In this document: positions 18,323-52,749 of the stretch, in pieces
Numbering within the stretch: the stretch's first letter is position 1
Layout of the letters: every line of letters begins with the position of its first letter
Origin: Treponema sp.
GTDB taxonomy: Bacteria; Spirochaetota; Spirochaetia; Treponematales; Treponemataceae
Length of the DNA: 64,000 nt
Direction of reading: 5' to 3'
Assembly: GCA_024402695.1 (NCBI GenBank)
Contig: JAKSTG010000015.1
Location: 4,142 to 68,141 of the forward strand
The notes under the pieces: generated by a model
Told to the model about the DNA's origin: nothing
Seen by the model: the letters and a program-made list of their open reading frames with translations, nothing else
Databases searched by the model: none
Translations under genes and position numbers: made by a program

Positions 18323-18411
18323 GAGGGGGCTGTCCCCTTTGACGGATATTGCAGAGGGGACAGACCCCTTTGTTTTATGACGTTACAATGCAGAGGGGAC
18401 AGACCCATTTG
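18323..18411. repeat. REP-like cluster 1 (3 copies)
   Basis: 18323-18341 is GAGGGGGCTGTCCCCTTTG (variant). 18352-18372 is CAGAGGGGACAGACCCCTTTG (F). 18391-18411 is CAGAGGGGACAGACCCATTTG (F variant). Confidence 0.9.
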
Positions 18412-18445
18412 CAACGTGTGGAAACCATAGGATTAAAGTAGTAAA

Positions 18446-21400
18446 ATGTTCTTTATGAGAAAAGTTTATTTTGTTTTATCATGGTTAATTTTGTTTTCAT
18501 CGTTATTTTGTATTTCTTCATGCAAAAAAGAAGTCGAAAATAACCAGCAGGCTGTTGAAGCTCCAGCTCCATCTACAAAATCGGAAGATCCGGAATATAT
18601 TGAAAATGCCGAATATGTGAATTCCATTGCCGGAATAGAAGGTTTGGAATTCGTTACTCTCGGAAAAGTTTCTGAAGGCGCATTTGGGCTAGATTATACT
18701 CCTCTTGTTCCTGAGCCTCAGAAAGAAGCAGGAAAAATTAATATGTCGGCAGGGACATCCAGCGGAAGCGGTGCTGGTCTTCCTGACGAATCTGTTATTC
18801 CAGGTTTAAGAAAACTGGAAGATTATAAAACTCTTTACTATAAAGAAAAGCTTGTCCTTTCAAATAAAGCAAATCCTGCGGAATCAGAAAAACTTGATCC
18901 GTCAAAAGCTCCTAAAGAACCTTTTACTGTTACAGATTGGGGCCCACAGGGAAAACTTCCTGCAGATGTAAGATGTCCTTCTTTTTATGTTCTCTTTTCA
19001 GAACCTGTAGTTCCTCTTAAGGCTTTGGACGCACCTGCTTCGGAAAATGAATTCATGAAGATTACACCTCCGTTGAAAGGTGTGTTCCGCTGGTATGGTT
19101 CAAGCCTTCTGAGTTTTGATGCAACAGAACCTGCAAATCCTCTTGAAACTTATACAATTACCCTGTCGGATAAAACAACTTCTCTTTACGGAAAGAAACT
19201 TACAGGCGATAAATCTTTTTCAACTGAAGCTGAATCTTTGAAAGTTGATGTATTCTATCCGGGAGAAAATTTTTCTCGCCAGAATCATATTTGGTTCGAC
19301 AATGATGATGTTCCTTTCGAAGCTGCAAAGGAATGTAAGGTCAGATTTAACTATGCAGTAAAAGCAAATGATATTCAGAAGCTTTCTACTGTTTCGGTTT
19401 ATGGAAAGAACAGATCCTTCTCTGTGGAACAGGTGACAGATGATTCTGTTCTGTACAAGATTGATTTCCCTTCAGAAAAAATTGATGACGGAAAAGTTGA
19501 AATTGAAATAAAGCAGCCGGGATCTGATAAATATCCTATGAGAGTGCTTTACTATACACTTCAGCCTTTCGCTGCAAAGAGCTGCAAGGAAGGAGATACT
19601 TACGGCAATAAATCAAATCCTGTATTCATCAGATTTTCTCATCAGGTGGATGAGAACTCTGTTCTTGGAAATCTGGTTCTGTCTCCTGAACTGCCAGTCA
19701 CAAAGGACAATATCAGCGTTCAGGGAATGTCTATTGAACTTTACAATCTTCCTGTTGAATTCGGAAAGAGTTATAGAATTGAACTTAAAGACGGAATAAA
19801 GGATATTTACGGACGTAAACTTTATGCAGGAAATGCATTCTCCTTTACAATTCCAGAAGCTGCAAGCACTGTGAATTTCAATAATTCCGGAATAAAAATC
19901 CTTGAAGCAAAGTTCCCTCACAAAATGGTATTTGATTACCAGAATGTTCGCGATGGTTCAACCTATACTTTGGCAAGAACAAAGACTCCTTTGAGCTACA
20001 AGAAGACTGCAATCCTGGACGGAAGTGAAATTGTGAAGGCTCTGGATACAGAGACAAGAAACCAGAGACTTCTTGAAGTTGTAGAAATGGATCCTCTTCT
20101 TGAAAATGGAAAGGGATGGGTTTCTTTTGATTCAGAAGTAAGACTCTGGAACCGTTACAGAAATACAGAATATAAAGATTACAATCATACTACTGTTCAG
20201 GTAACTGACCTTGGTGTAACTGTCCGCTATGGAATTAACAAGGTAGTAGCTTTTGTTACAAGACTGAGCGACGGAACTCCAGTGAAGGATGCAGAGGTTT
20301 ACTGGTACGAAGGATATAACAATACTTTTGATCCGGACCAGATAAAAGAATTTGCCTCAGCCCATGGAACTACAGGAGAGAATGGTCTTGCTGTTATTCC
20401 TACTGATACGAAAGTAACTTATTCAAATCCTTGTGTTCTTGTAACGACAGAAGATGATGCCGTTACTTTTTCTCCATCTGGACACAGCCCTTGGAGAAAC
20501 GGAATTTATAACACCGGTTCATACAGAAATGCGGCAACTTCGGAAGCCGTTACTTTCATGTTTAGCGACAGAGGTCTTTATAAACCGAGCGAAACAGTTT
20601 CCTTCCGCGGAATTGAAAGAAATCTTAATTTGGGAAGATATTTCCCATGGACAGGTTCTTATATAATTGAACTTAAAGAAGACAAATGGTACAGACCTAA
20701 GGTGATTTCAACACTTACTGGAAGAACTTCAAGTTCCGGCGGATTCTCGGGTAAATTTGAGATTCCTTCAGACCTGGAACCTGGAAACTATAAAATTGCC
20801 TTCAGACGCCAGGATGTAAATGCTGAGCGCAGCATCACAATCAATGTTGCTTATTTCGAAAGACTTAAGTTCCAGTCATCGATTGCTATTCCAAAAGTTC
20901 CTGTAACAGCAGGAGATACTCTTCAGGGAACTCTGAGTGCCTCTTACCTGGCTGGGGGAGCTCTTTCGGGAGCTTCATATTCTTCTTCATGGATTCGTGA
21001 ACCATGGTATTTCACATCAGATGATTCGGAACTGAAGAACTTCAGATTCGGTCCTATAGATTCAAACGGCGGAAGAAATTACATAAGTGATGATTCCGGA
21101 GTTCTTTCGGCCAATGGTGAAGCCAAGCTTTCTGTAACTGCAGAAGCGGGAGAACTTAAAGGCGTTCCTTACAGATACAGAGTTTCTGCAGAAGTTACTG
21201 ATGTTTCGAATATGAGTATTTCTGCTCAGGCTTCCGCTGTTGTTCATCCTGCTTTGTATTATCTTGGACTTGCAAAAGGTGCCGGAACAAAAGGCTGGGC
21301 AAAAGCCGGACAGAAACAGGACTTCATCTTCAAGATGGCTGATCTGGAAGGAGTTGCTGTAAAACGTGCAGAAAATCCAGACAAGCTTGTAAAAAATCTT

Positions 21401-24400
21401 ACGGGCGAAAACAATGTTCTTAAAGTAACTTTGAGCCGCGATGTATGGAACCTTGTAAAACAGAATGGTGTATACGGCGGTATTTATACCCGTTATGAAA
21501 AAACAACTGAAGTTGAAGAAACAAAGAAAGTTTATATTGCTGCCGAAGGAAAGGTTTCTGTAACTCCTTCAAAGGTCGGCTACTATACTCTTACTGTGGA
21601 AGGAAGCGATGCAAAGGGAAGACCTGTTCTTTCAGAAATCCGTTTCTTTGCTACCGGTAAAGGAAACTATCTTTGGAACCAGGAAGACGCAACTTCAATC
21701 AGACTGACTCCTGACAAAAATAAATATAATCCTGGAGAAATGGCTCATATCCTTATGGAAAGTACTCTTCCTAGCGGTGACTATCTTGTTACTGTTGAAC
21801 GCGAAGGAATCTTTACAGAAGAGATAAAACATTTTGATGACGGAATTTCAGTTCTGGATATTCCTGTTGCCAGAGGTTATGTACCTGTAGTTTATGTATC
21901 CGTTTCTTCTTACTCAGTTCGTGCCGGTGAACCTGTTCATAAATACGGCGAAGTGGACCTTGATAAACCAAAAGGTTATTACGGAGTAACAGAACTTTTT
22001 GTTGATCCTTACGTTAAGGCCTTCAGCATTGACGTTAAGTCTGCAAAGACTGCATATCGTCCTGGAGAAGAAGCCTCTGTTACACTTACTGCTACTCGTG
22101 GTGGGGAACCGCTGGCAAATGCAGAGATTACTCTTATGGCAGTTGACCGTGGTGTTCTTGATCTGATTGATTACCATGTTCCGAACCCAATCGACTTCTT
22201 CTACAACCATAACAAATTCCCGCTTCGCGTATACGGAGGCGACAGCCGTCAGTATCTTATGGACCCTGTAACTTATGAAGTTAAGAATCTTCAGGGTGGT
22301 GACGAGGGCGATGATAAGCTTCAGGAAAGAAGTGATTTCAATCCTACAGCTGTATTTATTCCAGTTTTGATGACAGATGAAAATGGACAGGTAACTGCCA
22401 ATTTCAAACTGCCAGACACTTTAACCACTTACCGTGTAACTGCCTTCGGTGTTTACGGTGATATGCTGGCACTGAGAGAAGATGAAATCGGTGTAAGAAA
22501 TCCTGTAAATGTTCAGCAGGTTCTTCCTAGAAGACTCCGTGAAAGAGATACTTCAGAAGTAGGGGTTCTTCTTACAAACCTGGACGGAGTTCCTCACGAG
22601 ATGACAGTAAGTCTTGAAATGAAGACTCCTGAAAAGAAAGACATTGTCGTTAAGAACGGAGTGGCGGGAGTTCCGGGAAAAGCCTTTGTGGATGGACCTG
22701 CTTCTCATAAAGTCACTGTTCAGCCTGGACAGAATATCACAGTTTACTTTGATGCTTCTGCAACAAAGGCAGGTATTGTAAACGCAGTATTTGAGATTAC
22801 AAGTGATATTGTAAATGAAAGACTGGTATGTCCTTTGACGATTGAAAAGCCATATCTGTACGAAACCTTTACTTCTATGGGAACTCTTACAGAAGACGAA
22901 AAATCGGGAAATGAAGGAATCATAATTCCTGAGTCTGTAGATAATATGGGGTCTCTTACAGTAACTTTGGATGCAACAAGACTTGGAACTCTTGCTGAAT
23001 CAGTAAACTATGTTTTCGGATATCCATACGGATGTCTTGAACAGCAGAGCGCAAAGGTTCTTCCTCTGATTATTTTTGAAGATTACATCGATGTCTTCGG
23101 ACTCGAAAAAGATGCTTCGATCAAGAATGTGAGAGAACTGGTTAAATCTTATCTTAAAGATTGGAGCAGATCTCAGCTGGGTAACGGAGGCTTCCCTTAC
23201 TGGCCGAGCGAAACAAGATATGATTCCTTCTTCGTTTCTTTAAGAATTGCAAACATCTGTGCTCTTGCAAAGGAAAGAGGTTATACCAATTCAGAAATCT
23301 CAATAAACGTTTCTCTTCTTTTGAATTATCTTGAAAAGTACATAAAGAAGAATGAACGTTATGTTTCTGATCTTGATAAGGCCTATTATAACTATATTCG
23401 TGCAATGTTCGAAATGCCTGTTTCAAAATCCGTTCTTGAAGGACAGCTGGCCGCAAGCAAAGATGTTTCAGTAACTGCACTTACCGGTCTGACTGCAATC
23501 AAGATTCCAAGCATGGAATCGGAACTGGCAGAAAAATGCCGCACAAATATCAGAAGCTTCATGAGGCCTGGAACCCGTGGTGTGGATATTTCGCAGAACG
23601 GTTCAGGTTACAGCTGGTGGTACAACACTGATTCTGACCGTAAGGCTCTGGCACTTCAGTTCCTTGTTCAGATGAATAAAGATGATGAAATAGTAACACG
23701 CCTTATCTGGTCTCTGCTTCAGGAACAGAAAGCTGGTTACTGGGCTAGTACTGCAACAACAGCAAGAGTTCTGGAATCAATGTATACGGTAATTAAGGTT
23801 TCAGATCTTGATAATTTGAATCAGAAAGCAACTGCAAGAATAAACGGAGCAGAACTTGCCGCCGGAACTTTTGCAGGTCCTGCAGCAAAACCTGTTACCC
23901 AGGTTATTCCGTTGAAAGATCCAAGACTTTCTGAACTGCCAAAAGATAAGCTTTGTTCAATTGATTTTGAAAAAGAAGGGAACGGAAGTCTTTATTACAC
24001 AACAAGTCTGAAGTACGCAATTCCGTATGAAAATCAGGCAATGCGAGATGAAGGGCTTTCTTTGACCATGACTGTAACTGATGTCCTGACAGGTGAAGAA
24101 ATAAAACCTGAAGGAAACTCAACTCTGATGGAACTTGAAAATGGACGGGTTTATCAGGTGAAGATTAATCTTTCTTCAACTCGTGACAGAACCTTTATTG
24201 CAGTCCGTGCTCCGGTTCCTTCAGGCGCTGAAATCCTTGATGCAACTTTCGTTACAAGTCCAGACGACAGTTATTCTGGAAGTGACTATAACGAGAATAA
24301 CCGTTATGACTGGGGCCGCTGGATGAGTAACCAGAATATTATGGATAATGAAGTTCAGTATTTCTGGGATCAGTTCAGAAAAGGAAGTACAACAGCAACC

Positions 24401-24517
24401 TTTAAGTTCCGTGCCGTTCGTCGCGGGGTATTCCCGGTTCCTCCTGTAACAGGAGAATGTATGTACGAACCTGAAGTATTTGGTCGTACCAGCGGACTTC
24501 TTTATACAATAAAATAA
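18446..24517 (+). CDS. alpha-2-macroglobulin family lipoprotein with thioester site
   Basis: The 2023-aa protein has the lipobox LFCISSC and repeated MG-type domains. The thioester motif is GYPYGCLEQQ. It is followed directly by pbpC, as in the E. coli yfhM-pbpC pair. Confidence 0.92.
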   Translation: MFFMRKVYFVLSWLILFSSLFCISSCKKEVENNQQAVEAPAPSTKSEDPEYIENAEYVNSIAGIEGLEFVTLGKVSEGAFGLDYTPLVPEPQKEAGKINMSAGTSSGSGAGLPDESVIPGLRKLEDYKTLYYKEKLVLSNKANPAESEKLDPSKAPKEPFTVTDWGPQGKLPADVRCPSFYVLFSEPVVPLKALDAPASENEFMKITPPLKGVFRWYGSSLLSFDATEPANPLETYTITLSDKTTSLYGKKLTGDKSFSTEAESLKVDVFYPGENFSRQNHIWFDNDDVPFEAAKECKVRFNYAVKANDIQKLSTVSVYGKNRSFSVEQVTDDSVLYKIDFPSEKIDDGKVEIEIKQPGSDKYPMRVLYYTLQPFAAKSCKEGDTYGNKSNPVFIRFSHQVDENSVLGNLVLSPELPVTKDNISVQGMSIELYNLPVEFGKSYRIELKDGIKDIYGRKLYAGNAFSFTIPEAASTVNFNNSGIKILEAKFPHKMVFDYQNVRDGSTYTLARTKTPLSYKKTAILDGSEIVKALDTETRNQRLLEVVEMDPLLENGKGWVSFDSEVRLWNRYRNTEYKDYNHTTVQVTDLGVTVRYGINKVVAFVTRLSDGTPVKDAEVYWYEGYNNTFDPDQIKEFASAHGTTGENGLAVIPTDTKVTYSNPCVLVTTEDDAVTFSPSGHSPWRNGIYNTGSYRNAATSEAVTFMFSDRGLYKPSETVSFRGIERNLNLGRYFPWTGSYIIELKEDKWYRPKVISTLTGRTSSSGGFSGKFEIPSDLEPGNYKIAFRRQDVNAERSITINVAYFERLKFQSSIAIPKVPVTAGDTLQGTLSASYLAGGALSGASYSSSWIREPWYFTSDDSELKNFRFGPIDSNGGRNYISDDSGVLSANGEAKLSVTAEAGELKGVPYRYRVSAEVTDVSNMSISAQASAVVHPALYYLGLAKGAGTKGWAKAGQKQDFIFKMADLEGVAVKRAENPDKLVKNLTGENNVLKVTLSRDVWNLVKQNGVYGGIYTRYEKTTEVEETKKVYIAAEGKVSVTPSKVGYYTLTVEGSDAKGRPVLSEIRFFATGKGNYLWNQEDATSIRLTPDKNKYNPGEMAHILMESTLPSGDYLVTVEREGIFTEEIKHFDDGISVLDIPVARGYVPVVYVSVSSYSVRAGEPVHKYGEVDLDKPKGYYGVTELFVDPYVKAFSIDVKSAKTAYRPGEEASVTLTATRGGEPLANAEITLMAVDRGVLDLIDYHVPNPIDFFYNHNKFPLRVYGGDSRQYLMDPVTYEVKNLQGGDEGDDKLQERSDFNPTAVFIPVLMTDENGQVTANFKLPDTLTTYRVTAFGVYGDMLALREDEIGVRNPVNVQQVLPRRLRERDTSEVGVLLTNLDGVPHEMTVSLEMKTPEKKDIVVKNGVAGVPGKAFVDGPASHKVTVQPGQNITVYFDASATKAGIVNAVFEITSDIVNERLVCPLTIEKPYLYETFTSMGTLTEDEKSGNEGIIIPESVDNMGSLTVTLDATRLGTLAESVNYVFGYPYGCLEQQSAKVLPLIIFEDYIDVFGLEKDASIKNVRELVKSYLKDWSRSQLGNGGFPYWPSETRYDSFFVSLRIANICALAKERGYTNSEISINVSLLLNYLEKYIKKNERYVSDLDKAYYNYIRAMFEMPVSKSVLEGQLAASKDVSVTALTGLTAIKIPSMESELAEKCRTNIRSFMRPGTRGVDISQNGSGYSWWYNTDSDRKALALQFLVQMNKDDEIVTRLIWSLLQEQKAGYWASTATTARVLESMYTVIKVSDLDNLNQKATARINGAELAAGTFAGPAAKPVTQVIPLKDPRLSELPKDKLCSIDFEKEGNGSLYYTTSLKYAIPYENQAMRDEGLSLTMTVTDVLTGEEIKPEGNSTLMELENGRVYQVKINLSSTRDRTFIAVRAPVPSGAEILDATFVTSPDDSYSGSDYNENNRYDWGRWMSNQNIMDNEVQYFWDQFRKGSTTATFKFRAVRRGVFPVPPVTGECMYEPEVFGRTSGLLYTIK

Positions 24518-24532
24518 ACGGGTTTTCTGAAA

Positions 24533-26641
24533 GTGAAAATTCTTACCAGAAAGTCTGCCATCAGATTTGGTGCTGCAGCAGGAATAATTCTTGCTGCAGT
24601 TCTAGCCCTGATGGCAGTAATCCGTTTCTCGCCTTATACGGCTCTACAGTCCTTCAAGTCTCACAAGATCTCTACAAGAGTTTATGATGTGAACGGAAAT
24701 CTTCTTCAGGTTCTAGCCCTGGAAGAGGGAGTTCGAAGAGAGTTCACTTCTCTGGAAGATATTCCGGAAGCCGTGGCTCAGTCTTTCATTCTTGCGGAGG
24801 ACAAGCGGTTTTTCACTCACAGGGGCGTTGATCTTTCGGCGGTTTTCCGTGCAGCGAAATCCAATGCAGAGGAAGGCCGTACTGTAAGCGGTGCATCAAC
24901 AATTACGATGCAGCTGGCAAGAATCATTTCTCCAAGAAAAAAACGTTCCCTCGGTGCAAAATGCGTGGAGGCCTGGAATGCTCTGCGCCTTGAAAGCCGA
25001 CTTTCGAAAAATGAAATCTTAGAACTATATCTGAATAATGTTCCTTTCGGATTCAATACAGAAGGGGTAACAAGTGCAGCTCGTTATTTCTTTGGTAAAG
25101 AACTGATTTATCTTACACCTGAAGAAATTGAAATCCTTTCTAAGATTCCAAGACGTCCCAAGTCCTGGGAAAGCCTGGCGGGAAATTATGAGTATCCTTA
25201 CGAGATGCCTCATTACATAAACTATCTGAAAAAGGATCCAAAGTCTGGTCTGTTTGAGAAGCCTGAAGTACAGCTTTCCTGTTCCTTTGAGATACAGAAG
25301 ATTGCAGAAGATTTTCTTGCCTCCCGCACGGGTATGTATTCAGAGAACAGACTTACAAACGGGGCAGTTCTTGCTATTGATGTAAAAACCGGAGAAGTTA
25401 TTGTATGGGCAGGAAGTGCTTCCTTTGCCGATGAAGACCATTCCGGTCAGATTGACGGAGTCCTTGTTCCGAATCAGCCGGGCTCAAGTATGAAGCCTTT
25501 CCTGTATGCTCTTGCTTTGGAACGGGGTTTTGAAATGACTTCAGTTCTGCCGGATGTTCCAATGGAGTTCGGTTTTGATGCCCTTTATGTTCCACAGAAT
25601 TTTAACAATCGATATAACGGTCCTGTAAGATTTCGCGTGGCCCTTGCTTCAAGTCTTAATATTCCTGCAGTTTATCTTCTTAATAAAGTTGGACTTGAAG
25701 ACTACAAGGAACGGCTTTATTCCCTCGGGTTTGAATCACTGAAAAATCAGGACCCGGGATTAAGTCTTGCTCTTGGAAGCGGGGAAGTAACGCTTAAGGA
25801 ACTTGTAAGAGCTTTTGCTGTTTTTCCAAGAGATGGCCTTGATTTTGAAGGGCGCAGAATTTATAAAGCGGATACTGCACGACTTGTCTGCAGTATGCTT
25901 TCAGATAAAGATGCCCGTGCATTAGGCTTTGGCTATTCAAAAGTTTTTCAGACTGACTTTGATTCAATGTTCAAAACAGGAACCGCAAACCAGTTCCAGA
26001 ATATTACCGCCCTGGGAGCAAGTTCTCGCTATGCAGTGGGAGTCTGGATGGGAAACTTTTCCGGCGAGACTGTTGTAGGAAAAACAGGAAGTTCCATTCC
26101 TGCCCAGATAGTCCACGATATTCTTGTGATGCTGGAAAATGACGGAAGACCTTCTGAAAGTTTCAGAAAGCCTGAAGTCTTTGAAAAAGTTAAAATCTGT
26201 TCACTTTCCGGAATGGCGGCAGGGGATTCCTGTGGAACAACGGTTTCGGAATATGCAGAAAAATCCTTCGTTAATCAGATGGAAAAATGTACCTGGCACC
26301 GTTCAGGAGAAGTTTTCTATCCGGAAGAATATACAGCCTGGTTTGCTTTGAAGAAAAGACAGGGAAATGTGGATTACGGTAGCGGAAGCCTTAGAATAAC
26401 TTCTCCACGGGAAGGAAGCATTTTCTTCTATGATGATTCTTTTTCGATGGGAAACAGCCAGAATCTTTCGGTTGAAGTTTTTGGCGGTAGTGAAGAAACT
26501 GCTGAACTTTATGTTGACGGAAAGAGTAAAGGGATTTCAGAAAGGCCTTTTGTTTTCAGACTGCCTCTTTCCCGCGGAGAACACCTGATTGAAGTGTTCT
26601 GCGGCGAAGAATCGGACAGTGTTTCATTTACTGTAAATTAG
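24533..26641 (+). CDS. pbpC: penicillin-binding protein 1C (bifunctional GT51 transglycosylase / transpeptidase)
   Basis: GTG start. GT51 motifs EDKRFFTHRGVD and GASTITMQLAR, transpeptidase SxxK (GSSMKPF), and a C-terminal PbpC-type domain. Confidence 0.9.
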   Translation: MKILTRKSAIRFGAAAGIILAAVLALMAVIRFSPYTALQSFKSHKISTRVYDVNGNLLQVLALEEGVRREFTSLEDIPEAVAQSFILAEDKRFFTHRGVDLSAVFRAAKSNAEEGRTVSGASTITMQLARIISPRKKRSLGAKCVEAWNALRLESRLSKNEILELYLNNVPFGFNTEGVTSAARYFFGKELIYLTPEEIEILSKIPRRPKSWESLAGNYEYPYEMPHYINYLKKDPKSGLFEKPEVQLSCSFEIQKIAEDFLASRTGMYSENRLTNGAVLAIDVKTGEVIVWAGSASFADEDHSGQIDGVLVPNQPGSSMKPFLYALALERGFEMTSVLPDVPMEFGFDALYVPQNFNNRYNGPVRFRVALASSLNIPAVYLLNKVGLEDYKERLYSLGFESLKNQDPGLSLALGSGEVTLKELVRAFAVFPRDGLDFEGRRIYKADTARLVCSMLSDKDARALGFGYSKVFQTDFDSMFKTGTANQFQNITALGASSRYAVGVWMGNFSGETVVGKTGSSIPAQIVHDILVMLENDGRPSESFRKPEVFEKVKICSLSGMAAGDSCGTTVSEYAEKSFVNQMEKCTWHRSGEVFYPEEYTAWFALKKRQGNVDYGSGSLRITSPREGSIFFYDDSFSMGNSQNLSVEVFGGSEETAELYVDGKSKGISERPFVFRLPLSRGEHLIEVFCGEESDSVSFTVN

Positions 26642-27636
26642 TTTACAAGATAGCATTCGTAGCCTGCTGAGCGGAGAGCATCTGCAGTTGTTGAATCTTT
26701 AGGATTTACAAAAACAGTGTAGTATACGTTTCCGCTAGGTTTTGTCTGTTTTTCATAATAAGCATCAAATCCTTTTTCTTTTACTTCATCTACAAGATGT
26801 TTTGCATTGTCTGCAGAACTGAAAAGTCCCAGCTGAAGTTTTCCTGAAACTTCTTCAGATTTTTCGGAGCTGTCCTGGACTGTAAGCTTCTTTGCTGTGT
26901 CTGCAGTCTTTGGAGCATCCTTTACGGTTCCTGTTTCTGGAGTTGCTTCTCCGCTTTTTGGAATGAAATACCAGAAAGGAGAAGGCAGCAGCTGTGAATC
27001 ACCTTTTACAATTGAAGCTTCGATGGAATCCGGGAAACGGCTTTTGATTTCTGTTGAATATGAAGTTTCTCCGGTAATGTACCAGAGAGTCAGAAGAACA
27101 GCAGGCTGAACAGATTTCATGGATGTCACACCTGAATAGGCCTTGAGCATGGCTACCGGTTCTTCAAGATCTTCTTTTGTTTCTGCGCGGCAAAGATTGC
27201 TCCATACAGAATAAAGTTTTATGTAACTCTGAATTTTCGGATTCTTTGAGTTGCGGACTGCGGAATTCAGGTAACTGTCTGCACGGCCGTAGTTTCCGCC
27301 GTTTAAGGCGCAGCGCACTGCATCCAGAACCAGCTGTTCATTGGAACGTTCCGGCATTTTTTCGGCATCACCTGCGGCAATTCCTGCTGCAGTTACGTAG
27401 GATTTTTCTGCCAGGTCATAAAGTCCCAGCATTTCCTGAAGGTTTCCAAGGAATGCGTAACAGGCGCGTTTTTCTTCCGGTACTGTCAGTTTTGAGGCTT
27501 CTGTCATAAGATAATCAGCACTTTCATCGGCGCTGGTTTTCTTTGTTGATTCATTTACCAGTTCCCATGCTTTCTTTTCTGCAAACAGGGAGAAAGAGGC
27601 AAGAATCATAATAAGTCCGGCTAATACTTTTTTCAT
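26638..27636 (-). CDS. TPR-like / SPOR domain protein
   Basis: Signal peptide, TPR-like helical half, and a C-terminal SPOR fold (LQLGLFSSADNAKHLVDEVKEKGFDAYY...YTVFV). Confidence 0.8.
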   Translation of the reverse strand: MKKVLAGLIMILASFSLFAEKKAWELVNESTKKTSADESADYLMTEASKLTVPEEKRACYAFLGNLQEMLGLYDLAEKSYVTAAGIAAGDAEKMPERSNEQLVLDAVRCALNGGNYGRADSYLNSAVRNSKNPKIQSYIKLYSVWSNLCRAETKEDLEEPVAMLKAYSGVTSMKSVQPAVLLTLWYITGETSYSTEIKSRFPDSIEASIVKGDSQLLPSPFWYFIPKSGEATPETGTVKDAPKTADTAKKLTVQDSSEKSEEVSGKLQLGLFSSADNAKHLVDEVKEKGFDAYYEKQTKPSGNVYYTVFVNPKDSTTADALRSAGYECYLVN

Positions 27637-27866
27637 AACGATTTAATATCCTTTTTCCTGGAGATAGGTCTGTTGATTTTAATTAGAAGGAGGCAGATCA
27701 GGGTAAAAACTATACCTGCCGCAAAGGCGGAAAGAACAAGAGTTGAAACCGGAAGGTTTTCGAATGTCTTGAAAATCCATAATGTACATTCATGTCCGAT
27801 GTTTTTTCCGATGAAAAATGCAACGAACACTATAAGAAAGATAATAACTATCAGTCCAAAAACCAT
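27633..27866 (-). CDS. LapA-domain small membrane protein
   Basis: The 77-aa protein has two TM helices (DUF1049-like). The ATGA overlap with the SPOR gene indicates coupling. Confidence 0.65.
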   Translation of the reverse strand: MVFGLIVIIFLIVFVAFFIGKNIGHECTLWIFKTFENLPVSTLVLSAFAAGIVFTLICLLLIKINRPISRKKDIKSL

Positions 27867-27947
27867 AAATCACAAACCTCGAGTTTCTTACTTATATTTA
27901 CGGAGGAAACTGACGTGAACTTTATCTCAAAAATCTCTACTTTTTTG

Positions 27948-27976
27948 TTGACATAACGTGGAGAAAATGATATTTT
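27948..27976 (+). promoter_or_regulatory. extended -10 promoter upstream of the ATP-grasp gene
   Basis: TTGACA (27948-27953), 17-nt spacer, TATTTT (27971-27976), preceded by a TGa extended -10 element. Confidence 0.55.
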
Positions 27977-28035
27977 ATACGTAAGCTTGTAAATAAGCTG
28001 ATAAACTCTCTCCGATGTCCAGCTCGACTGGACGG

Positions 28036-28079
28036 CAAGACCCCTGATTGATGTTATCTTTCGGGGGTCTTGTTTATTT
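28036..28079 (+). terminator. intrinsic terminator / attenuator inside the 5' leader of the ATP-grasp gene
   Basis: CAAGACCCC (28036-28044) pairs with GGGGTCTTG (28064-28072), followed by TTTATTT. It lies 45 nt before the ATG at 28125. Confidence 0.5.
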
Positions 28080-28124
28080 AACCTGTTATATTAAGTTTCT
28101 GGACAATCTGATACACTTTTAACT

Positions 28125-29264
28125 ATGGTAAAGCTTGTTCTGGCCGGAGCCTGCAGCATTTATGACCTTTCTGGTATGAAAAAAGCCTTTGAAAAATCAG
28201 GCTTTCAGGTCTCTTTTGTTGATGCACCTTTTATGGCAGGCATAAAGATACATGAATATCCCGAAAAAGAAGAAATCCTCTATACAGCGGAAGTCTCAGA
28301 TGACTGTGTTGCGGTTCCTTTGTCGGAATACTGGATCTCTTTCTGTAAAAAGAAGGGATGTTGCAGGATTTCAGACAGGGCTTTGGAATCATCAAGGTCA
28401 AAACGCTATTTCTATGATTTTCTAAAGAAAAACGGCTTTGATTATCCGGCAGAGTATAAAAGGGTTGAAGACGCGGAAAAAACTCTTGATGAAGGAAAAC
28501 GGGTGATTGTAAAACCGGAAGGACTTCATTCTGGGTACGGCATTGAAATCCTTGATAAATCCGGAAAAGAAAAACTCAGGGAATATGTTTCCCAGGCGGA
28601 AAACATAAAGAACAGAACTCTCCGCCTTATGGAAATCGAAAATAAAGGGGCCATGCTTACAGAGGCCGTTGAAGGAACGGAATACAGTGCAGACTGCTTC
28701 TTTATTGAAGGCCGCATTTCTGTAGTCAGAATCTGCAGGAAGAAGATAATGGTGATCAACGACAAACCATGTGCGGCCGCTTATGTTCTTCTTTCGCCGG
28801 AAAATGAAGAATATAAAAGATTTGAAAAATATCTGATGGCTTGGACTTCTGCGATTTTTGATGCATCTGACATTTCTTTTGCGCAGTATGATTTTATTGT
28901 GTCAGAAGACGGTCGTGTAGTTCCCGTAGATTTTGCTTCCCGCGTAGGCGGTGGAATCAGTGACCTGCTTATGGAAACCGGAAAGAATCCTTATGCCCTG
29001 GCGGTGGAAGGGGAGAAGTTTCAGGTGGAAGAGGGCTGGACACAGTTTCATTATCTTCCCGTTGTTTCAGGATACATTACAAATGATGATTATCCTCTTC
29101 TTGAAGGAAGAAGTCATGTGTTCAAAAAGAAAGGCGGCTATGTCATTTCGAATCCTTCCAGTGTGGGAAGCCGGGTGGCAGTAACAGTCTGCCGTTATGA
29201 AAAGGAAATTGATGAAAATCTTCTTGAAAAGCTTCTTCTGGACAGAAGGTATATCGAGTCTTAA
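28125..29264 (+). CDS. ATP-grasp domain protein
   Basis: The 379-aa protein has the central motifs VIVKPEGLHSGYGIEI and ...EGTEYSADCF..., typical of the ATP-grasp fold. The substrate is unknown. Confidence 0.75.
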   Translation: MVKLVLAGACSIYDLSGMKKAFEKSGFQVSFVDAPFMAGIKIHEYPEKEEILYTAEVSDDCVAVPLSEYWISFCKKKGCCRISDRALESSRSKRYFYDFLKKNGFDYPAEYKRVEDAEKTLDEGKRVIVKPEGLHSGYGIEILDKSGKEKLREYVSQAENIKNRTLRLMEIENKGAMLTEAVEGTEYSADCFFIEGRISVVRICRKKIMVINDKPCAAAYVLLSPENEEYKRFEKYLMAWTSAIFDASDISFAQYDFIVSEDGRVVPVDFASRVGGGISDLLMETGKNPYALAVEGEKFQVEEGWTQFHYLPVVSGYITNDDYPLLEGRSHVFKKKGGYVISNPSSVGSRVAVTVCRYEKEIDENLLEKLLLDRRYIES

Positions 29265-29315
29265 CAAAGGGGATTTTTGAATTTATAATTAATTATTTAC
29301 AACTGAAGAGAACTT

Positions 29316-32375: not shown

Positions 32376-32379
32376 GATC

Positions 32380-36564: not shown

Positions 36565-36585
36565 TTTATTCTTTATCATAAAACC

Positions 36586-39983: not shown

Positions 39984-40002
39984 TTAAGTCATGACTAGTA
40001 TA

Positions 40003-40032
40003 AAAGCCGTCCGGAATCGGGCGGCTTTTTTG
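40003..40032 (+). terminator. intrinsic terminator
   Basis: AAAGCCGTCCG pairs with CGGGCGGCTTT, followed by TTTT. Confidence 0.7.
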
Positions 40033-40053: not shown

Positions 40054-40161
40054 AGGGGGCAGATTGAAAAAGGGGACAGACCCCTTGGAAATACATTTCA
40101 ATGGGGACAGCCCCCTTGCGCTTTGATAACCGAGGGAAAAAATAGGGGTCTGTCCCCTCTG
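40054..40161. repeat. REP-like cluster 3 (3 copies plus one degenerate)
   Basis: 40067-40086 is AAAAGGGGACAGACCCCTT (F). 40101-40118 is ATGGGGACAGCCCCCTT (F variant). 40143-40161 is TAGGGGTCTGTCCCCTCTG (R). There is a degenerate AAGGGGGCAGAT at 40054. Confidence 0.9.
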
Positions 40162-42646: not shown

Positions 42647-42723
42647 AGGGAGGGAGCCCCCTCCCTGGTCGCAACCCGCTTTGCGGTTTGCTCCACACCC
42701 ACCCCAGCGGGGGATTCCCCCGC
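42647..42723 (+). other. three consecutive GC-rich hairpins between the SBP gene and the DUF1850 gene
   Basis: AGGGAGGG-AGCC-CCCTCCCT (42647-42666), GCAACCCGC-TTT-GCGGTTTGC (42671-42691), and GCGGGGG-ATT-CCCCCGC (42707-42723). None is followed by a T-run. Confidence 0.7.
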
Positions 42724-45329: not shown

Positions 45330-45365
45330 AATATAATAGCTTGATTTTAGGTTGAGTTTAGAATG

Positions 45366-45415
45366 AAGGGGTCTGTCCCCTCTGTTATAACAGTAACAGA
45401 GGGGACAGACCCCTT
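45366..45415 (+). terminator. inverted REP pair forming the intrinsic terminator of the TRAP operon
   Basis: AAGGGGTCTGTCCCCTCTGTTA, loop TAACAG, then TAACAGAGGGGACAGACCCCTT followed by a 6-T run. This gives a perfect 22-bp stem built from one R copy and one F copy. Confidence 0.8.
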
Positions 45416-45508
45416 TTTTTGATGTTTATCGGCCTTTTTCTTTTTGCTCTTCTTTTATTAAAGTTTTGTAACATTGATTTCTTAATAGATCGGTTATGAC
45501 AGTTCTTT

Positions 45509-46258
45509 TTAAGCTTTTGAGATTATTGTTCTAGGAAAACCGGTTATTCTACTGATTTGAGAGATTGAGAAGTGATGTTCTTTTAGGAGATGAAGCTGCG
45601 TTATTTGTTCATTTAAGGGAAAGGTTTTTATTATATTTAGGTTTGTTATGTTAAGTAAATTTTGAATAATTAGTTTTGCTCTGTCATCGCTATAAAATGG
45701 TTTATTTTCATATTCCATATATTCTTGCTTATCATAAGCGTTAAGAAACGTATAAATTGCATTTTTACTTCCAAATATGGAATAAAGAAAGTCTGTTTTT
45801 ATTGTTACGGGATTGTTTGCTTGTGTCAGTTCTTTGTAACTGCTCCATATATAATCCTGCATATTGCAGATTTTTGCTTTTTCTGGATTCTTGAGAATAT
45901 AACGTAATACATTTTTCAGATAAATTTCATCTTCTACAGGTTCACTTTTGAACCTTCCCTGGAAAAGATGCCCACTGCAATCATATTTATGATTAAAAAA
46001 ATATACATAGCTGTTTGCCAGTTTCTGAACAAACAGGCTGAGGTCTTTTTTGGGTGTGTTCCCGAGCAAAATATGCACATGGTTTTGCATGAGACAATAG
46101 GCGTAGATGTGAATTTCAAGCTGATTTGCATACTTACGTATCCGGTTAATGAAAAAATGCCGGTCAGCATCATCATAGAAAATCGATTGTTTGTTATTGC
46201 CCCGCATGATTATATGATAGATCTGCGATCTTGCTTCTTTTCTGGGTTTTCTAGCCAT
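45509..46258 (-). CDS. IS200/Y1 HUH transposase-like protein (RAYT-like, COG1943) with a C-terminal HTH
   Basis: HUH motif in YAYCLMQNHVHILLG, catalytic Tyr region VLRYILKNPEKAKI, and GHLFQGRFKS between them. The C-terminal SISQISRITGFPRTIISKA resembles a DnaA-C-type HTH. Confidence 0.85.
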   Translation of the reverse strand: MARKPRKEARSQIYHIIMRGNNKQSIFYDDADRHFFINRIRKYANQLEIHIYAYCLMQNHVHILLGNTPKKDLSLFVQKLANSYVYFFNHKYDCSGHLFQGRFKSEPVEDEIYLKNVLRYILKNPEKAKICNMQDYIWSSYKELTQANNPVTIKTDFLYSIFGSKNAIYTFLNAYDKQEYMEYENKPFYSDDRAKLIIQNLLNITNLNIIKTFPLNEQITQLHLLKEHHFSISQISRITGFPRTIISKA

Positions 46259-46334
46259 ATTATTCCTTGATTATAGAATTGCTCAAAATTTACAAAAAAG
46301 GAAAAAGTGTGCGGAAAAAAGAGGGGAATCATTA

Positions 46335-46350
46335 AAAAGGGGACAGACCT
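46335..46350. repeat. degenerate REP-like copy upstream of the RAYT gene
   Basis: AAAAGGGGACAGACCT, in F orientation, with the 3' half of the palindrome eroded. Confidence 0.6.
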
Positions 46351-46438
46351 ATCTTTTACATCGTTCAGATTTCCTTGACGATTTTACTACTTGGACTTAA
46401 AATATATTGAAGTTCTAAAGTGGGGTTTCATTTTTTCC

Positions 46439-46969: not shown

Positions 46970-47022
46970 GCACATGCAGTCTGCGTTGCAGACTTCAATA
47001 TACTGGGATTTCTTAATTTAGA

Positions 47023-47041
47023 TAGGGGTCTGTCCCCTCTG
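47023..47041. repeat. REP-like copy (R) just upstream of cstA
   Basis: TAGGGGTCTGTCCCCTCTG, 28 nt before the cstA ATG. Confidence 0.9.
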
Positions 47042-48775: not shown

Positions 48776-48799
48776 TTGAAATTATCGTTTAGACGATAA

Positions 48800-48850
48800 G
48801 AAGCCGCTGACAGGATTAGTCCTGTTGGCGGCTTTTTTTATTTTTTTTTG
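48800..48850 (+). terminator. intrinsic terminator of cstA
   Basis: AAGCCGCTGACAGG pairs with CCTGTTGGCGGCTT, followed by long T-runs. Confidence 0.8.
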
Positions 48851-48853: not shown

Positions 48854-48947
48854 CAGAGGGGACAGCCCCCTAAGAGAAATAAAACCAGAAAACTAGGAGT
48901 CTGTCCCCTCTGACTTGCTTTCTTTATGTAGGGGTCTGTCCCCCTTT
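48854..48947. repeat. REP-like cluster 4 (3 copies)
   Basis: 48854-48872 is CAGAGGGGACAGCCCCCT (F variant). 48894-48912 is TAGGAGTCTGTCCCCTCTG (R variant). 48929-48947 is TAGGGGTCTGTCCCCCTTT (R). Confidence 0.9.
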
Positions 48948-50046: not shown

Positions 50047-51692
50047 AAAAAAAGAAAACCGCGTTTTTTCCTGCTGTAACTGTACTCTGGAGCTGCGCGG
50101 TACTTTTTCTTGCAGTATTTATTCTTTTTCCTCTTGTCTGCGTCTTTGCAAAAATCAGGCTTTCAGACCTGGCAGAGATTTTTACTGCTGTCAGATTCAG
50201 AAAAACAATTCTGAATACTGTCCTTGAATGTATCTGTTCAACAACTCTTTCTGTTCTGACAGGCTATATCTATGCTTACGCCGTAACCTTCGGTCGTCTG
50301 CCTTTCAGGAAGTTTTTTTCATTTATCCCTGTGCTTCATCTGATTACACCTCCTTTCGTAGGTGGTTTGGCTTTCATTCTTCTTCTTGGAAGACAGGGCC
50401 TCATCACAAAGACAATTCTTCACCTTGATGTTTCTTTATATGGATTTCCAGGTCTGCTTATTGCCCAGACTCTTTGTTTCTTTCCCCTGGCGTATCTGAT
50501 GTGCAAGGAAAGTTTTGAGGCTCTTAACCGAAATCTTGTTGACGGGGCAGTAAGTCTTGGGGCTTCCAAACTGAAGATATTTTTCCGCGTGATTTTTCCC
50601 CTTACGTTTCCAACTCTGCTTTCGAGCTTCCTTTTTATAGCAGTTTCAGTCTTAAGTGATTTCGGAAACCCTATGATCGTAGGCGGAAGATTCAAGGTTC
50701 TGGCTGTAGAAATCTATACTCAGCTTACAGGGTGGATGAATGCAGGAACTTCTGCCGCCCTTGGACTGGTTCTTCTGATTCCATCCCTTGGTCTGTTTTT
50801 CCTCCAGAACAGGCTTTTCAAAAAACAGTCAAAGAAGACTGCCATTCTTGGGGGAAAAGGCAGTGCCGTAAAAAACGGAGGAAATTCTTCTTCTGAACCG
50901 GTTTTCAGAAATTCTGTTTTTGCAGATATTCTTCTTTTTTTGTTCGTGACCTTCATAGCTCTGGCCGTTCTTCTTCAATTTGTTTCCATTATTGCTGGAA
51001 GTTTCCAGAAACTTTGGGGAATAGATACCACCTTTACTTTTGAGCATGTCAAAAAAACATTCAGATATGGAAAAGAATTCCGGAATTCAGTTCTCTTTGC
51101 ACTTTCGGCTTCTACTTTGTCTGCGTTGATTTCTCTTTTTGTCTCTTTCTGTGTGCACAGAACAGGCTCCGGAAGACTTGTCGGGAAGAGTTTTGTTGAT
51201 TCCCTTATCCAGCTTCCTTCTGCAATTCCGGGGTCACTTTTTGGACTTGCTTTTTCCATTACCGCCAATATGCTGCATATAAAGGCGCCGCGTTTTCTTA
51301 TATGTATGGTCATCACTGTGGCTTTCATGCCTTTTTCGTACCGTATTGTAACTTCGACTTTTTCGCAGATCCGACAGACTCTCGATGAAGGGGGACAGAC
51401 CCTTGGGGCCGGATTCATGAAAATTCTTGGAAGAATACTTGTTCCTTTATCAAAAGGCGGTATCATGTCCGGCTGGACCTACAACTTCGCAAGGGGAGTA
51501 GGAACCTTAAGTTCCGTGATATTCCTTGTAAGCTTCAATACACCTTTATGCTCTGTCCGTATCCTGAATCTGGCGGAGCAGGGGGACTGGGGACGGGCAG
51601 CCGCCATGGCTGTAGAACTGACCTTAATCACTTTTGCTATTATTCTTGGAGGAAACCTGATTTTTAGGAAGAGAGGAGATTCAAATGAATGA
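50025..51692 (+). CDS. ABC transporter permease, duplicated (FbpB/AfuB-like)
   Basis: The 555-aa protein has two MetI-like halves, each with an EAA-type loop. Confidence 0.85.
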   Translation: MDRTGKIEKKKTAFFPAVTVLWSCAVLFLAVFILFPLVCVFAKIRLSDLAEIFTAVRFRKTILNTVLECICSTTLSVLTGYIYAYAVTFGRLPFRKFFSFIPVLHLITPPFVGGLAFILLLGRQGLITKTILHLDVSLYGFPGLLIAQTLCFFPLAYLMCKESFEALNRNLVDGAVSLGASKLKIFFRVIFPLTFPTLLSSFLFIAVSVLSDFGNPMIVGGRFKVLAVEIYTQLTGWMNAGTSAALGLVLLIPSLGLFFLQNRLFKKQSKKTAILGGKGSAVKNGGNSSSEPVFRNSVFADILLFLFVTFIALAVLLQFVSIIAGSFQKLWGIDTTFTFEHVKKTFRYGKEFRNSVLFALSASTLSALISLFVSFCVHRTGSGRLVGKSFVDSLIQLPSAIPGSLFGLAFSITANMLHIKAPRFLICMVITVAFMPFSYRIVTSTFSQIRQTLDEGGQTLGAGFMKILGRILVPLSKGGIMSGWTYNFARGVGTLSSVIFLVSFNTPLCSVRILNLAEQGDWGRAAAMAVELTLITFAIILGGNLIFRKRGDSNE

Positions 51693-52749
51693 AGAAATAC
51701 TGAAACTTGAAGACATATCTTTTTCTTATGGAAAAAACGCGATTTTGAAATCTTTTTCTCTGTCTGTTGAAAAAGGATCTTTCACAACTCTTCTTGGTCC
51801 GTCAGGCTGTGGAAAAACAACTCTTTTAAGGCTTGTTGCAGGGTTTCTGAAGCCTGATGAAGGACGTATTCTCATAAACGGAAGGGATGTGTCGGATGTT
51901 CCTGTAGAAGAAAGACGGATTGGCTTTGTTTTTCAGGATTATGCCTTGTTTCCTCATATGACTGTAAAGGAAAATCTGCTTTTTGGATTCAGTCATAAGG
52001 AAAAGAAGTCCCAGCTTTCCCGTGTGGAGGAGATTTCTGCCTCTCTTGAACTTTATGAGCTTCTGGAAAGATATCCACATGAGCTTTCCGGAGGTCAGCA
52101 GCAACGTGTCGCTCTTGGCCGCACTCTCATGATGAAACCTGAAATCATCCTTATGGATGAACCTTTGTCATCTCTTGATGCGAAACTACGGCTTAAGGTT
52201 CGGGAAGAGCTTCAGGAAATACAGAGAAACATCGGAATCACCACAATTTATGTTACTCATGACCAGGAAGAAGCCCTTTCGCTTTCCTCAAAAATAGCTG
52301 TAATGAATGAAGGAAAGCTCCTTCAGCATGATACTCCGGAAAACGTTTATTTCAATCCTTCTGATAAAGAGACTGCTGAGCTTACAGGACAGGCAAACTT
52401 CCTCAAAATGGGCGGAAAACTGGTTATGGTTCGCCCTGAATGGTTTTCTGTGGATACGGAACTGGAAAAAGATAGCCAGAACAAGATCAAAGGAACTGTT
52501 GTTTCATCTTCATTTCTGGGGGCTGTCGTGCGCTACAAGCTTGAATGTGCTGAAAGCCTGAAAGGTTATGTGACTGCAGATATCCGTAAAGCAAAGGGGA
52601 CAGACCCCTCGCAATCGAAATCCCTTTCAAAGGGGACAGACCCCTCTGCCGCTAAATCCAGATCAGAGGGGACAGACCCCCTTGCATCCCTTCAACCCGG
52701 CGAAAAAGTTATTTTGACAATTGATTCTTCTGTCTGCTTTGATAATTGA
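51685..52749 (+). CDS. ABC transporter ATP-binding protein (FbpC/PotA-like) with a repeat-derived insertion in the C-terminal TOBE-like domain
   Basis: Walker A GPSGCGKTT, signature LSGGQQQR, Walker B IILMDEPLSSLD. The C-terminal domain is interrupted by KGTDPSQSKSLSKGTDPSAAKSRSEGTDPLAS. Confidence 0.9.
   Translation: MNEEILKLEDISFSYGKNAILKSFSLSVEKGSFTTLLGPSGCGKTTLLRLVAGFLKPDEGRILINGRDVSDVPVEERRIGFVFQDYALFPHMTVKENLLFGFSHKEKKSQLSRVEEISASLELYELLERYPHELSGGQQQRVALGRTLMMKPEIILMDEPLSSLDAKLRLKVREELQEIQRNIGITTIYVTHDQEEALSLSSKIAVMNEGKLLQHDTPENVYFNPSDKETAELTGQANFLKMGGKLVMVRPEWFSVDTELEKDSQNKIKGTVVSSSFLGAVVRYKLECAESLKGYVTADIRKAKGTDPSQSKSLSKGTDPSAAKSRSEGTDPLASLQPGEKVILTIDSSVCFDN
52594..52683 (+). repeat. 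REP-like cluster 5: three tandem F copies in frame inside the ATPase CDS
   Basis: The GGGGACAGACCCC cores start at 52596, 52632 and 52668, exactly 36 bp apart. Each is read as G-T-D-P. Confidence 0.9.

Follow-up and report, generated by a model that had tools for sequence, protein, structure and literature searches.

The 64,000-nucleotide stretch of Treponema sp. DNA analysed here (assembly GCA_024402695.1, contig JAKSTG010000015.1; hereafter the window) very probably carries a REP-RAYT system of an uncultured gut Treponema, that is, a family of repetitive extragenic palindromic (REP) sequences together with its REP-associated tyrosine transposase (RAYT), an arrangement also termed REPtron or, in the terms of Di Nocera and colleagues, TIRtron. 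The dispersed repeat unit would be the cognate DNA site of the sole HUH/Y1 transposase encoded in the window, whose open reading frame (ORF; 45509-46258, minus strand) is a key part of the system and had been missed in the original prediction. That prediction, made from the letters of the DNA, had read the repeats as resembling REPs and bacterial interspersed mosaic elements (BIMEs), and this reading is borne out by the REP-type Y1 gene flanked by copies, by the enrichment of copies outside ORFs, by the spread of the motif beyond the window and by its absence from a syntenic relative that lacks the transposase.

A dense family of short palindromic repeats

The repeat unit reads 5'-CA(G/A)A-GGGG-ACAGA-CCCC-T-3', which may also be written CA[GA]AGGGGACAGACCCCT; it spans about 18-21 nt around a 13-nt core and is composed of a lineage-specific 5' tag, a G:C stem of 4-5 bp and an invariant loop of 5 nt. 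With at most one mismatch, the core GGGGACAGACCCC matches the two strands of the window 19 times, always within 18325-52680, whereas 100 dinucleotide shuffles gave a chance level of 0.02 +/- 0.14 and no shuffle reached two matches. Similarly, an 18-nt weight matrix built from the copies (CAGA-GGGGACAGACCCC-T, threshold of at least 12 bits) finds 22 sites in the window, two of which are opposite-strand echoes of the near-palindromic core, and none in each of 20 shuffles. Matches with two mismatches at 10453 and 53766 look like chance.

At least 19 copies at nine loci had originally been listed. Each of the positions given for them holds the sequence described, and the three regions declared empty (1-18000, 19000-38000 and 53000-64000) are indeed free of copies with up to one mismatch. 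Two of the 19 matches (39273 and 51391), however, are coding look-alikes, and the census comes to 17 solid copies and one degenerate copy at eight loci (Table 1). The match at 39273-39285, previously taken for a copy at 39271-39288, is an exact 13-mer but lies inside the SpoU methyltransferase ORF and lacks the CAGA tag; we rejected it as an intragenic insertion since it encodes a conserved GDRP with differing codons and no indel separates it from two orthologues. These SpoU codons agree with the core at 13 of 13 and 11 of 13 positions in the genomes that carry the transposase gene and at 7 of 13 in the one that lacks it, and the REP-like codons shared by the two former genomes are probably due to coincidence or shared ancestry. 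The match at 51391, which has one mismatch and was not in the earlier list, falls on the EAA-loop codons of an ABC permease, where the amino acids are conserved and again no indel is seen, and was rejected likewise. That the family as a whole is an artefact of chance, composition or coding is a negligible possibility: such an origin accounts for these two look-alikes, and for the other 17-18 copies it is refuted by the shuffles of both the core and the weight matrix.

The sequence common to the copies ends at about 18-21 nt, and the spacers within doublets and arrays are unrelated. On the 5' side CA[G/A]A is kept as sequence (C 88%, A 100%, A 88%), whereas conservation on the 3' side is limited to the first T; the stem of about 8 bp that had been drawn from pairing CAGA with TTTG flanks is thus present in some copies, e.g. 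at 18352-18372, but is no property of the family. Folded as DNA, a single unit has a stem of 5-8 bp and a 5-nt loop (-4.7 to -5.6 kcal/mol, z = -2 to -2.9). Singles, same-orientation tandem arrays and inverted doublets are all present in the window, as had been described, and the strand orientation of the copies is about 9:8 relative to the plus strand, with no replication-strand bias. At the Rfam gathering thresholds no known RNA family was detected anywhere in the window, nor does the window contain tRNA genes. Outside ORFs of at least 100 aa lie 12 of the 19 matches in the window, 43 of 53 at the RAYT-centred loci of relatives and 84 of 136 at metagenome loci, even though the non-ORF share of the sequence amounts to only 6-13% (p = 1e-10 to 1e-43). 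The family thus combines the traits by which REPs are recognised, namely a short imperfect palindrome able to form a stem-loop, many dispersed and mainly extragenic copies, and a single, tandem or inverted arrangement.

Membership of a family of miniature inverted-repeat transposable elements (MITEs; about 100-400 bp, with terminal inverted repeats and target-site duplications) was rejected because only some 18-21 nt are common to the copies. Of the earlier concern that the copies might be fragments of a larger insertion sequence or MITE, the MITE part can therefore be dropped, the spacers being unconserved, whereas the core does turn out to be the terminal repeat of a transposase cassette.

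The Y1 transposase of the window is of the RAYT type

The protein encoded at 45509-46258, the only Y1 ORF in the 64 kb, matches Pfam PF01797 (Y1_Tnp) with 64 bits, and its best NCBIfam model is the REP-associated tyrosine transposase model NF047646 (58.7 bits, profile positions 2-146 of 146). It carries the motifs NHVH (HuH, residues 59-62), GHLFQGRF, RYILKNP (YILKNP at 120-125, with the catalytic Tyr120) and WSS, and in an alignment of 47 homologues H60, H62, Y120, N124 and GHLFQGR are invariant and W138/S140 invariant or nearly so. Because a sequence search of the PDB returned only marginal matches of the IS200 type (E = 0.026), a fold search was needed to place the enzyme. Foldseek matched its AlphaFold2 model (pLDDT 86) best with 4ER8_A, the E. 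coli TnpA_REP in complex with a REP hairpin (E = 8.5e-6, target-normalised TM 0.76, 13% identity in the structural alignment), and the transposases of IS608 and ISDra2 rank next. The model has a C-terminal helical bundle ending in SISQISRITGFPRTIISKA; one homologue (P0042) has a precomputed match to Pfam HTH_7, and a Pfam search with the C-terminal tail of the window protein alone gave nothing significant. Among the best 120 of 1443 homologues, lengths range from 236 to 291 aa, mostly 246-252, and the named ones are all from Treponema.

In its HuH motif, Y---NP and TnpA_REP fold the enzyme agrees with class 2 RAYTs. Within this class it fits subclass 2.1 (Group 1, TIRYT), an assignment made by motifs and not by a tree with reference members: judged by Table 1 of Quentin et al. 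2018 (PMC6006769), it matches the subclass in NHVH, in FQ instead of WE/WQ, in Y[IV]xxNP, in SS and in a C-terminal tail resembling a helix-turn-helix (HTH), and its 249 aa compare with a median of 238. Subclass 2.1 corresponds to Group 1 of Bertels et al. and contains 20 of the 26 TIRYTs of Di Nocera et al. (PMC6006769). TIRYT genes are flanked by inverted repeats with GGGGWSAS, some of which make up families of moderate abundance, "organized as REPs in dimers or clusters" (Di Nocera et al. 2013, PMC3733652). The first eight bases of the core in all lineages examined, GGGGACAG, fit GGGGWSAS exactly, and TIRtrons/TIRYTs with this motif are the closest kind of system described. We rejected membership of the IS200/IS605 family, as the enzyme has Y---NP and not Y---Q, the NCBIfam IS200 model gives it 29 bits, short of the cut-off of 55, the gene is present in one copy in 64 kb and its neighbours are DctM and DUF8052, with no tnpB.

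Repeats bracket the transposase gene in diverged lineages

In the window the transposase gene is bracketed by cores at 45368 (-), 45401 (+) and 46339 (+, decayed), which is the arrangement of a REPtron. Such bracketing is found in five diverged lineages, i.e. the window and the homologue loci L005, L129, L008 and L130/131, with flanking copies 67-103 nt upstream of the coding sequence and mostly 81-96 nt downstream of it (221 nt in L130), and 6-17 cores are scattered over each 20-kb homologue locus. The DNA around five homologues was examined, and the identities given here are those of the homologue with the window transposase. L005 (72%) is fully syntenic, with the gene at the same DctM/DUF8052 junction, neighbour proteins of 72-95% identity and 20 core matches at up to two mismatches in 20.7 kb. 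L129 (56%), which has another gene neighbourhood, contains 14 matches to the stem-loop motif, 11 of them exact 13-mers, with a core upstream of the gene and its reverse complement downstream. Bracketed in the same way are L130/131 (48%), again in another neighbourhood, with 17 and 14 motif matches (16 and 14 exact), and L008 (49%), which shows the same 13-mer core in an unrelated neighbourhood. The flanks of the core vary by lineage, the tags being AAC, AAT or AGC (preceded by C) in L008 and mostly.AGA in L130, whereas the 13-mer is constant across the lineages examined. Finally, L132 (45%) has an intact gene in an unrelated neighbourhood, a single core in 20 kb and only degenerate flanking copies (GAGAGGGACAGTCCTCTC, GAGGGCTGTCCCCCT and AGGTCTGTCCCTTT, within 9590-10915).

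At L008 (10001-11994) the transposase gene adjoins a gene for a D12-class adenine methyltransferase. A homologous methyltransferase gene is located at 36586-37692 of the window, about 8 kb from the transposase gene in both the window and L005; this proximity could be due to chance or be a remnant of linkage.

Table 1. Repeat loci, transposase gene and cassette in the window
Feature	Position	Strand	Details	Context
REP cluster, three copies	18323-18411		cores 18325 (-), 18356 (+), 18395 (+)	between the rpsG terminator and the alpha-2-macroglobulin gene
Tandem REP pair	38638-38679	-	cores 38642, 38663; period 21	between the AEC-family transporter gene and the SpoU gene
REP cluster, three copies	40068-40161		cores 40072 (+), 40103 (+), 40145 (-)	after the canonical terminator 40002-40029, upstream of the DUF763 gene
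Whole cassette (REPtron/TIRtron)	45330-46364		about 1.0 kb	inverted doublet, transposase gene and decayed REP
Inverted REP doublet (REPIN-like)	45366-45415		perfect; cores 45368-45380 (-), 45401-45413 (+)	96 nt past the transposase stop
HUH/Y1 tyrosine transposase gene, RAYT type	45509-46258	-	249 aa; by its motifs TnpAY1 subclass 2.1 / Group 1 / TIRYT-like
Decayed REP AAAAGGGGACAGACCTAT	46335-46352	+	core 46339; 19.5 bits; preceded by half-site AGAGGGGAATCA	81 nt upstream of the transposase ATG
Single REP	47021-47041	-		between DUF8052 and cstA
REP cluster, three copies	48854-48947		cores 48858 (+), 48896 (-), 48931 (-)	between the cstA terminator (48798-48837) and a solute-binding-protein gene
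Tandem REP array, three copies	52592-52684	+	cores 52596, 52632, 52668; period 36 nt, i.e. 12 codons	inside the ABC ATPase ORF 51685-52749

Gene and repeats are absent together from a syntenic relative

A sister metagenome-assembled genome, GCA_024402565.1 (L221 and L223, 42 kb), is gene-for-gene syntenic with the window at 77-79% nucleotide identity, the same divergence as that of L005. At its DctM/DUF8052 junction there is no Y1 gene but a gap of 73 nt, and homology to the window sets in again at about 46365, some 14 nt beyond the decayed upstream REP. Because the gap lacks the cassette and homology resumes at this very place, the cassette is a discrete indel bounded by repeats. The 42 kb of this genome contain no core, even at up to three mismatches, and no GGGG-N5-CCCC of any kind, and all the gaps and ORFs that carry REPs in the window are empty in it. 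Two genomes thus have both the gene and the repeats, and a third of equal divergence has neither. DUF8052 was rejected as a partner in the system since it adjoins DctM in the genome without the transposase as well.

Comparison of the individual loci shows both persistence and turnover. At orthologous gaps of L005, REP units stand out as conserved islands in diverged spacer, as with the three REPs at the site of the 48854-48947 cluster. The doublet past the transposase gene has identical arms and a wholly different spacer in L005, the copy orthologous to the decayed REP upstream of the gene is intact there, and the single REP at 47021-47041 is kept at the orthologous site of L005 and missing in L223. 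There are also sites that hold REPs in just one of the two, the window or L005. In L005 the gap corresponding to 40068-40161 is free of REPs and three REPs lie on the opposite side of DUF763; in the window a half-site occurs in the stretch 40054-40161 in addition to the three copies. The gap between the S7 gene and the alpha-2-macroglobulin gene measures 224 nt with three REPs in the window, as compared to 96 nt and 130 nt without a REP in two syntenic relatives, and that between the AEC transporter and SpoU genes, where the flank of the first copy of the window pair provides the transporter stop codon, is 9 nt long and REP-free in L223.

The in-frame insertions differ between the two genomes too. 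The array at 52592-52684 is not extragenic but runs in frame through the TOBE-domain end of the ATPase, each copy encoding (K/E)GTDP(S/L); in the protein alignment the L005 orthologue has 27 residues fewer at exactly this position, after which the C-terminal strand GEKVILTIDSSVCFDN resumes. Conversely, the linker between the domains of the L005 permease holds an inverted doublet in frame (5348-5401) that the window permease does not have, and in L223 both the ATPase (320 aa) and the permease (542 aa) are free of inserts.

An alternative would be that the repeats are the solo ends of an ordinary insertion sequence, whose cassette of about 1 kb hops as a whole and leaves dispersed copies as footprints or abortive ends. 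The cassette being a discrete indel of about 1.0 kb between inverted copies would be in keeping with this, as would the unrelated neighbourhoods of the homologues at L008, L129, L130 and L132, and Bertels et al. count Group 1 RAYTs among the more IS-like groups. We nevertheless consider it very unlikely, as the 64 kb hold a single Y1 ORF that is locally outnumbered by copies at least 17:1, and as the gene occupies the same locus in a species whose orthologue is 72% identical, which argues against a recent move. Moreover, the tandem arrays and doublets have unrelated spacers and share nothing past about 21 nt, the IS200-type Y---Q motif is missing, and there is no room for an adjacent tnpB.

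Another alternative is that the repeats are a host signal independent of the transposase, such as a terminator or mRNA-stabilising hairpin, the site of a host protein or a sequence of the DNA-uptake type, and that their proximity to the Y1 gene is coincidental. The copies are intergenic and near gene ends, as such a signal would be, but they come in both orientations and some lie in frame inside ORFs. The doublet at 45366-45415, which is followed by a run of seven T and sits between the convergent DctM and transposase genes, forms a hairpin of 23 consecutive pairs (DNA folding -27.3 kcal/mol, z = -9.9) and, together with this T7, is the strongest terminator-like site in our scan; most clusters, however, lie downstream of separate canonical terminators (40002-40029, 48798-48837). 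We rejected a primary role as terminator since these canonical terminators precede two of the clusters, and terminator activity would be at most secondary. That loop and stem do not vary points to a protein that recognises them, and in other bacteria uptake sequences, too, are found as inverted pairs within terminators. Yet the motif brackets a Y1 gene in five lineages and also in Kiritimatiellia, and the syntenic relative without the gene is without any copy, so that its genes evidently manage without the motif. A host signal is therefore a most unlikely explanation.

Proposed mechanism and points that weigh against it

If the repeats and the transposase form a REP-RAYT system, its activity can be pictured by analogy with TnpA_REP of E. 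coli and with the IS608 and ISDra2 transposases. The unit or doublet would fold into a hairpin on single-stranded DNA, for instance on the lagging-strand template, and the enzyme would bind the hairpin together with the 5' tag. Tyr120 would then cleave and form a 5'-phosphotyrosine link, and strand transfer would copy or move units, probably in the form of doublets. In addition, the HTH tail at the C-terminus may recognise the near-palindromic core in duplex DNA. Upon insertion, a doublet with a T-tract would come to resemble a bidirectional terminator, and other copies would be tolerated in frame in protein loops.

Several points speak against a REP-RAYT system, or against parts of it, and have to be set beside the evidence above. 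The steps of cleavage and transfer are drawn by analogy only. Classical REPs have the canonical tag GT[AG]G, which is missing here, that of the window and L005 being CA[G/A]A. A single unit is a weak hairpin, and since stem and loop never vary there is no covariation to support the folded form; such invariance would fit recognition of duplex DNA equally well. The NF047646 score of the enzyme stays below the curated cut-off of 80. Two surveys class its subgroup as not REP-associated (PMC6006769, PMC5581495): Quentin et al. found no REP-like sequences near subclass 2.1 genes by automatic and manual searches (PMC6006769), and according to Bertels et al. the flanking 16-mers of Group 1 occur only about 12 times. 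Presence of the enzyme does not guarantee an abundant repeat family, as L132 demonstrates, which may represent a decaying system or an enzyme with another role. The copy upstream of the gene is in minus orientation in the window and L005 and in plus orientation in L008, L129 and L130. The joint absence of gene and repeats rests on one genome without the RAYT, and a second relative is partly sampled. Finally, the core density of 0.18-0.6 per kb would amount to several hundred copies per genome, an extrapolation from loci that were chosen for holding a copy.

Relation to known systems

The described TIRtrons, exemplified by ORFs 1152 and 4509 of Stenotrophomonas maltophilia K279a and ORF 1552 of Koribacter versatilis (PMC3733652), share with the system of the window an enzyme of about 240-250 aa with NHVH, FQ, Y--xNP, SS and an HTH-like C-terminal tail, flanking inverted repeats that start with GGGGACAG at a similar distance from the gene, and dispersed singles, dimers and clusters. 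Different from them, the present host belongs to the Spirochaetota, the core is a compact, self-complementary 13-mer with an invariant loop and a 5' CAGA tag, its local density is very high (0.3-0.6 per kb), and the same core goes with enzymes that are only 48% identical.

With the E. coli REP/BIME elements and their TnpA_REP (RayT/YafM) the system has in common the HUH/Y1 fold of the enzyme, with 4ER8 as best match, a gene bracketed by its own repeats, and repeats that are mostly extragenic, hairpin-capable and arranged as singles, tandem arrays and inverted pairs. E. coli REPs differ in having a GTAG tag and a stem of about 10-15 bp with bulges instead of the 4-5 bp and invariant loop found here, and the 165-aa TnpA_REP lacks the additional HTH-like tail of the 249-aa window protein, to which it is 13% identical in the structural alignment. 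The REPIN-RAYT systems of Pseudomonas (Groups 2 and 3), reportedly described by Bertels and Rainey in 2011, are similar in their inverted doublets with long hairpins, in the conserved locus of the RAYT, in the retention of elements at orthologous sites and in that loss of the RAYT accompanies absence of the repeats. Unlike in these, the enzyme in Treponema is Group 1-like, doublets and tandem arrays of one orientation are equally common, and the core does not co-diverge with the enzymes but is constant across very divergent ones. With IS200/IS605 elements such as IS608 and ISDra2, whose substrates are single-stranded hairpin ends, the system shares the superfamily of the catalytic domain; it differs from them in Y---NP instead of Y---Q and the lack of tnpB, in a syntenic gene with one copy in 64 kb and in repeats that far outnumber this gene.

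No relevant publication came up when the literature was searched for the exact 13-mer or for RAYT or REP in combination with Treponema or spirochaetes. The kind of system is therefore already known but appears to be undescribed in spirochaetes. The earlier statement that no such family was known from these bacteria thus holds insofar as we found no report of one; its assertion that the consensus was unfamiliar has to be qualified, as GGGGACAG conforms to the published GGGGWSAS, and Di Nocera et al. list Spirochaetes among the phyla with CGTC-tagged REP-like repeats, which are unrelated to the present core (PMC3733652).

What the window adds is, first of all, a clear link between a dense REP-like family and enzymes of Group 1 / subclass 2.1, which both surveys had called REP-free. 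This group is the largest and least understood of the RAYT groups. Among mobile DNA, REP-RAYT systems are the main example known to be maintained in bacterial genomes through vertical inheritance, and work on them has been done almost entirely in Proteobacteria; here a clean example comes from the Spirochaetota, and from gut Treponema, which are abundant but poorly studied. Syntenic sister genomes with and without both gene and repeats provide a natural experiment, and the ABC ATPase and the permease provide examples of repeats tolerated in frame. On the practical side, the repeats can extend or distort ORF calls, and they probably fragment metagenome assemblies of Treponema from short reads, the gene-bearing contigs of four runs being only 1-3 kb long. 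The identical transposase was found on four Logan contigs of 1.2-3.0 kb (L001-L004; SRR17543907, SRR17543908, SRR17543910 and SRR17543912), which tend to end at or near REPs.

Distribution within and beyond Treponema

Confinement of the motif to this single stretch had been named as an outcome that would speak against REPs, and the motif is instead found at many loci outside it. The lineage-specific 18-mer CAGAGGGGACAGACCCCT occurs in 82 public metagenome stretches; among the 80 that were analysed, 71 have no similarity to the window and in 4 the enzyme has a full-length homologue; a single co-assembly accounts for at least 16 contigs with the 18-mer. Copies appear to be concentrated near the gene. 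In the window, 6 of 9 gaps are occupied at 38-53 kb, within about 7 kb of the transposase gene, as opposed to 1 of 18 elsewhere (hypergeometric p = 0.0017, for a region defined post hoc), and the RAYT-centred loci of relatives contain 0.64 cores per kb, as opposed to 0.18 extra cores per kb at loci seeded by the 18-mer. The repeats may thus spread preferentially in cis.

A pan-bacterial scan of one genome per species, based on the motif only and calling for two GGGGWCWGWCCCC cores 6-36 nt apart, yielded at least 120 stretches. Such paired cores occur in at least nine phyla or groups: Acidobacteriota, Planctomycetota, Actinomycetota, Firmicutes, Bacteroidales, Proteobacteria, Omnitrophota, Kiritimatiellia and Spirochaetota. 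When loops are sorted into the classes ACAGA/TCTGT, TCAGA/TCTGA and ACAGT/ACTGT, 160 of 164 adjacent pairs among the matches listed have the same loop class, as compared to 42% expected if the two were independent, and because of this agreement we take the paired cores for true repeat families and not for G+C-rich noise. A distant Y1 ORF is present within 8 kb at 2 of the 120 loci listed, which is no test of association; the rarity of nearby Y1 genes fits dispersed repeats with a single-copy gene. In a Kiritimatiellae metagenome-assembled genome a cluster of six or more GGGGACAGTCCCC-type units precedes the Y1 ORF, and two further Kiritimatiellia homologues, fetched independently, are preceded or flanked by such units, nine in one case, so that clusters of GGGGAC[AT]GTCCCC stand before or around Y1 genes at three loci of this group.

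Together with the finding that within Treponema one 13-mer goes with enzymes of only 48% identity, this lets us put forward, as a tentative idea that is plausible though somewhat short of probable, that subclass 2.1 / Group 1 RAYTs serve a pan-bacterial superfamily of REPs with GGGG-WCWGW-CCCC as its recognition core. If so, the core would be an unusually deeply conserved code of protein-DNA recognition, and pairs of Treponema genomes with and without the system could show what Group 1 RAYTs do.

Other palindromes and neighbouring genes

Some palindromes in the syntenic genomes are distinct from the REP core. In L223 (11708-11925) the gap between the CstA and solute-binding-protein genes has a different long palindrome, AATCAAATGGTCCCTGAGTCCTTCGACAGGCTCAGGAACCACCTGTCGAAGGGCCCATTTGATT, at the place where the window carries three REPs, and this could be a member of another repeat family. 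A separate G/C palindrome, GGGGGATTCCCCC, is located at 42709-42721 of the window in the gap between the NMT1_3 and DUF1850 genes; because a similar one, GGGGGAAGTCTCCCCC, occurs at the same place in the genome without the RAYT (L223 6647-6740), it does not belong to the REP family. The window also contains the hairpin GCACATGCAGTCTGCGTTGCAGACTTC (46970-46996), immediately past DUF8052 and upstream of cstA; it is identical in L005 and in L223 despite diverged surroundings and is a candidate for a terminator or a regulatory element that has no relation to the REPs. Lastly, the alpha-2-macroglobulin gene (2023 aa) that follows the first REP cluster is itself followed by a transglycosylase/transpeptidase (PBP1C-like) gene (18446-26641 for the two), and judged by the Pfam families at the syntenic loci this looks like the usual, ordinary pairing of the two genes.

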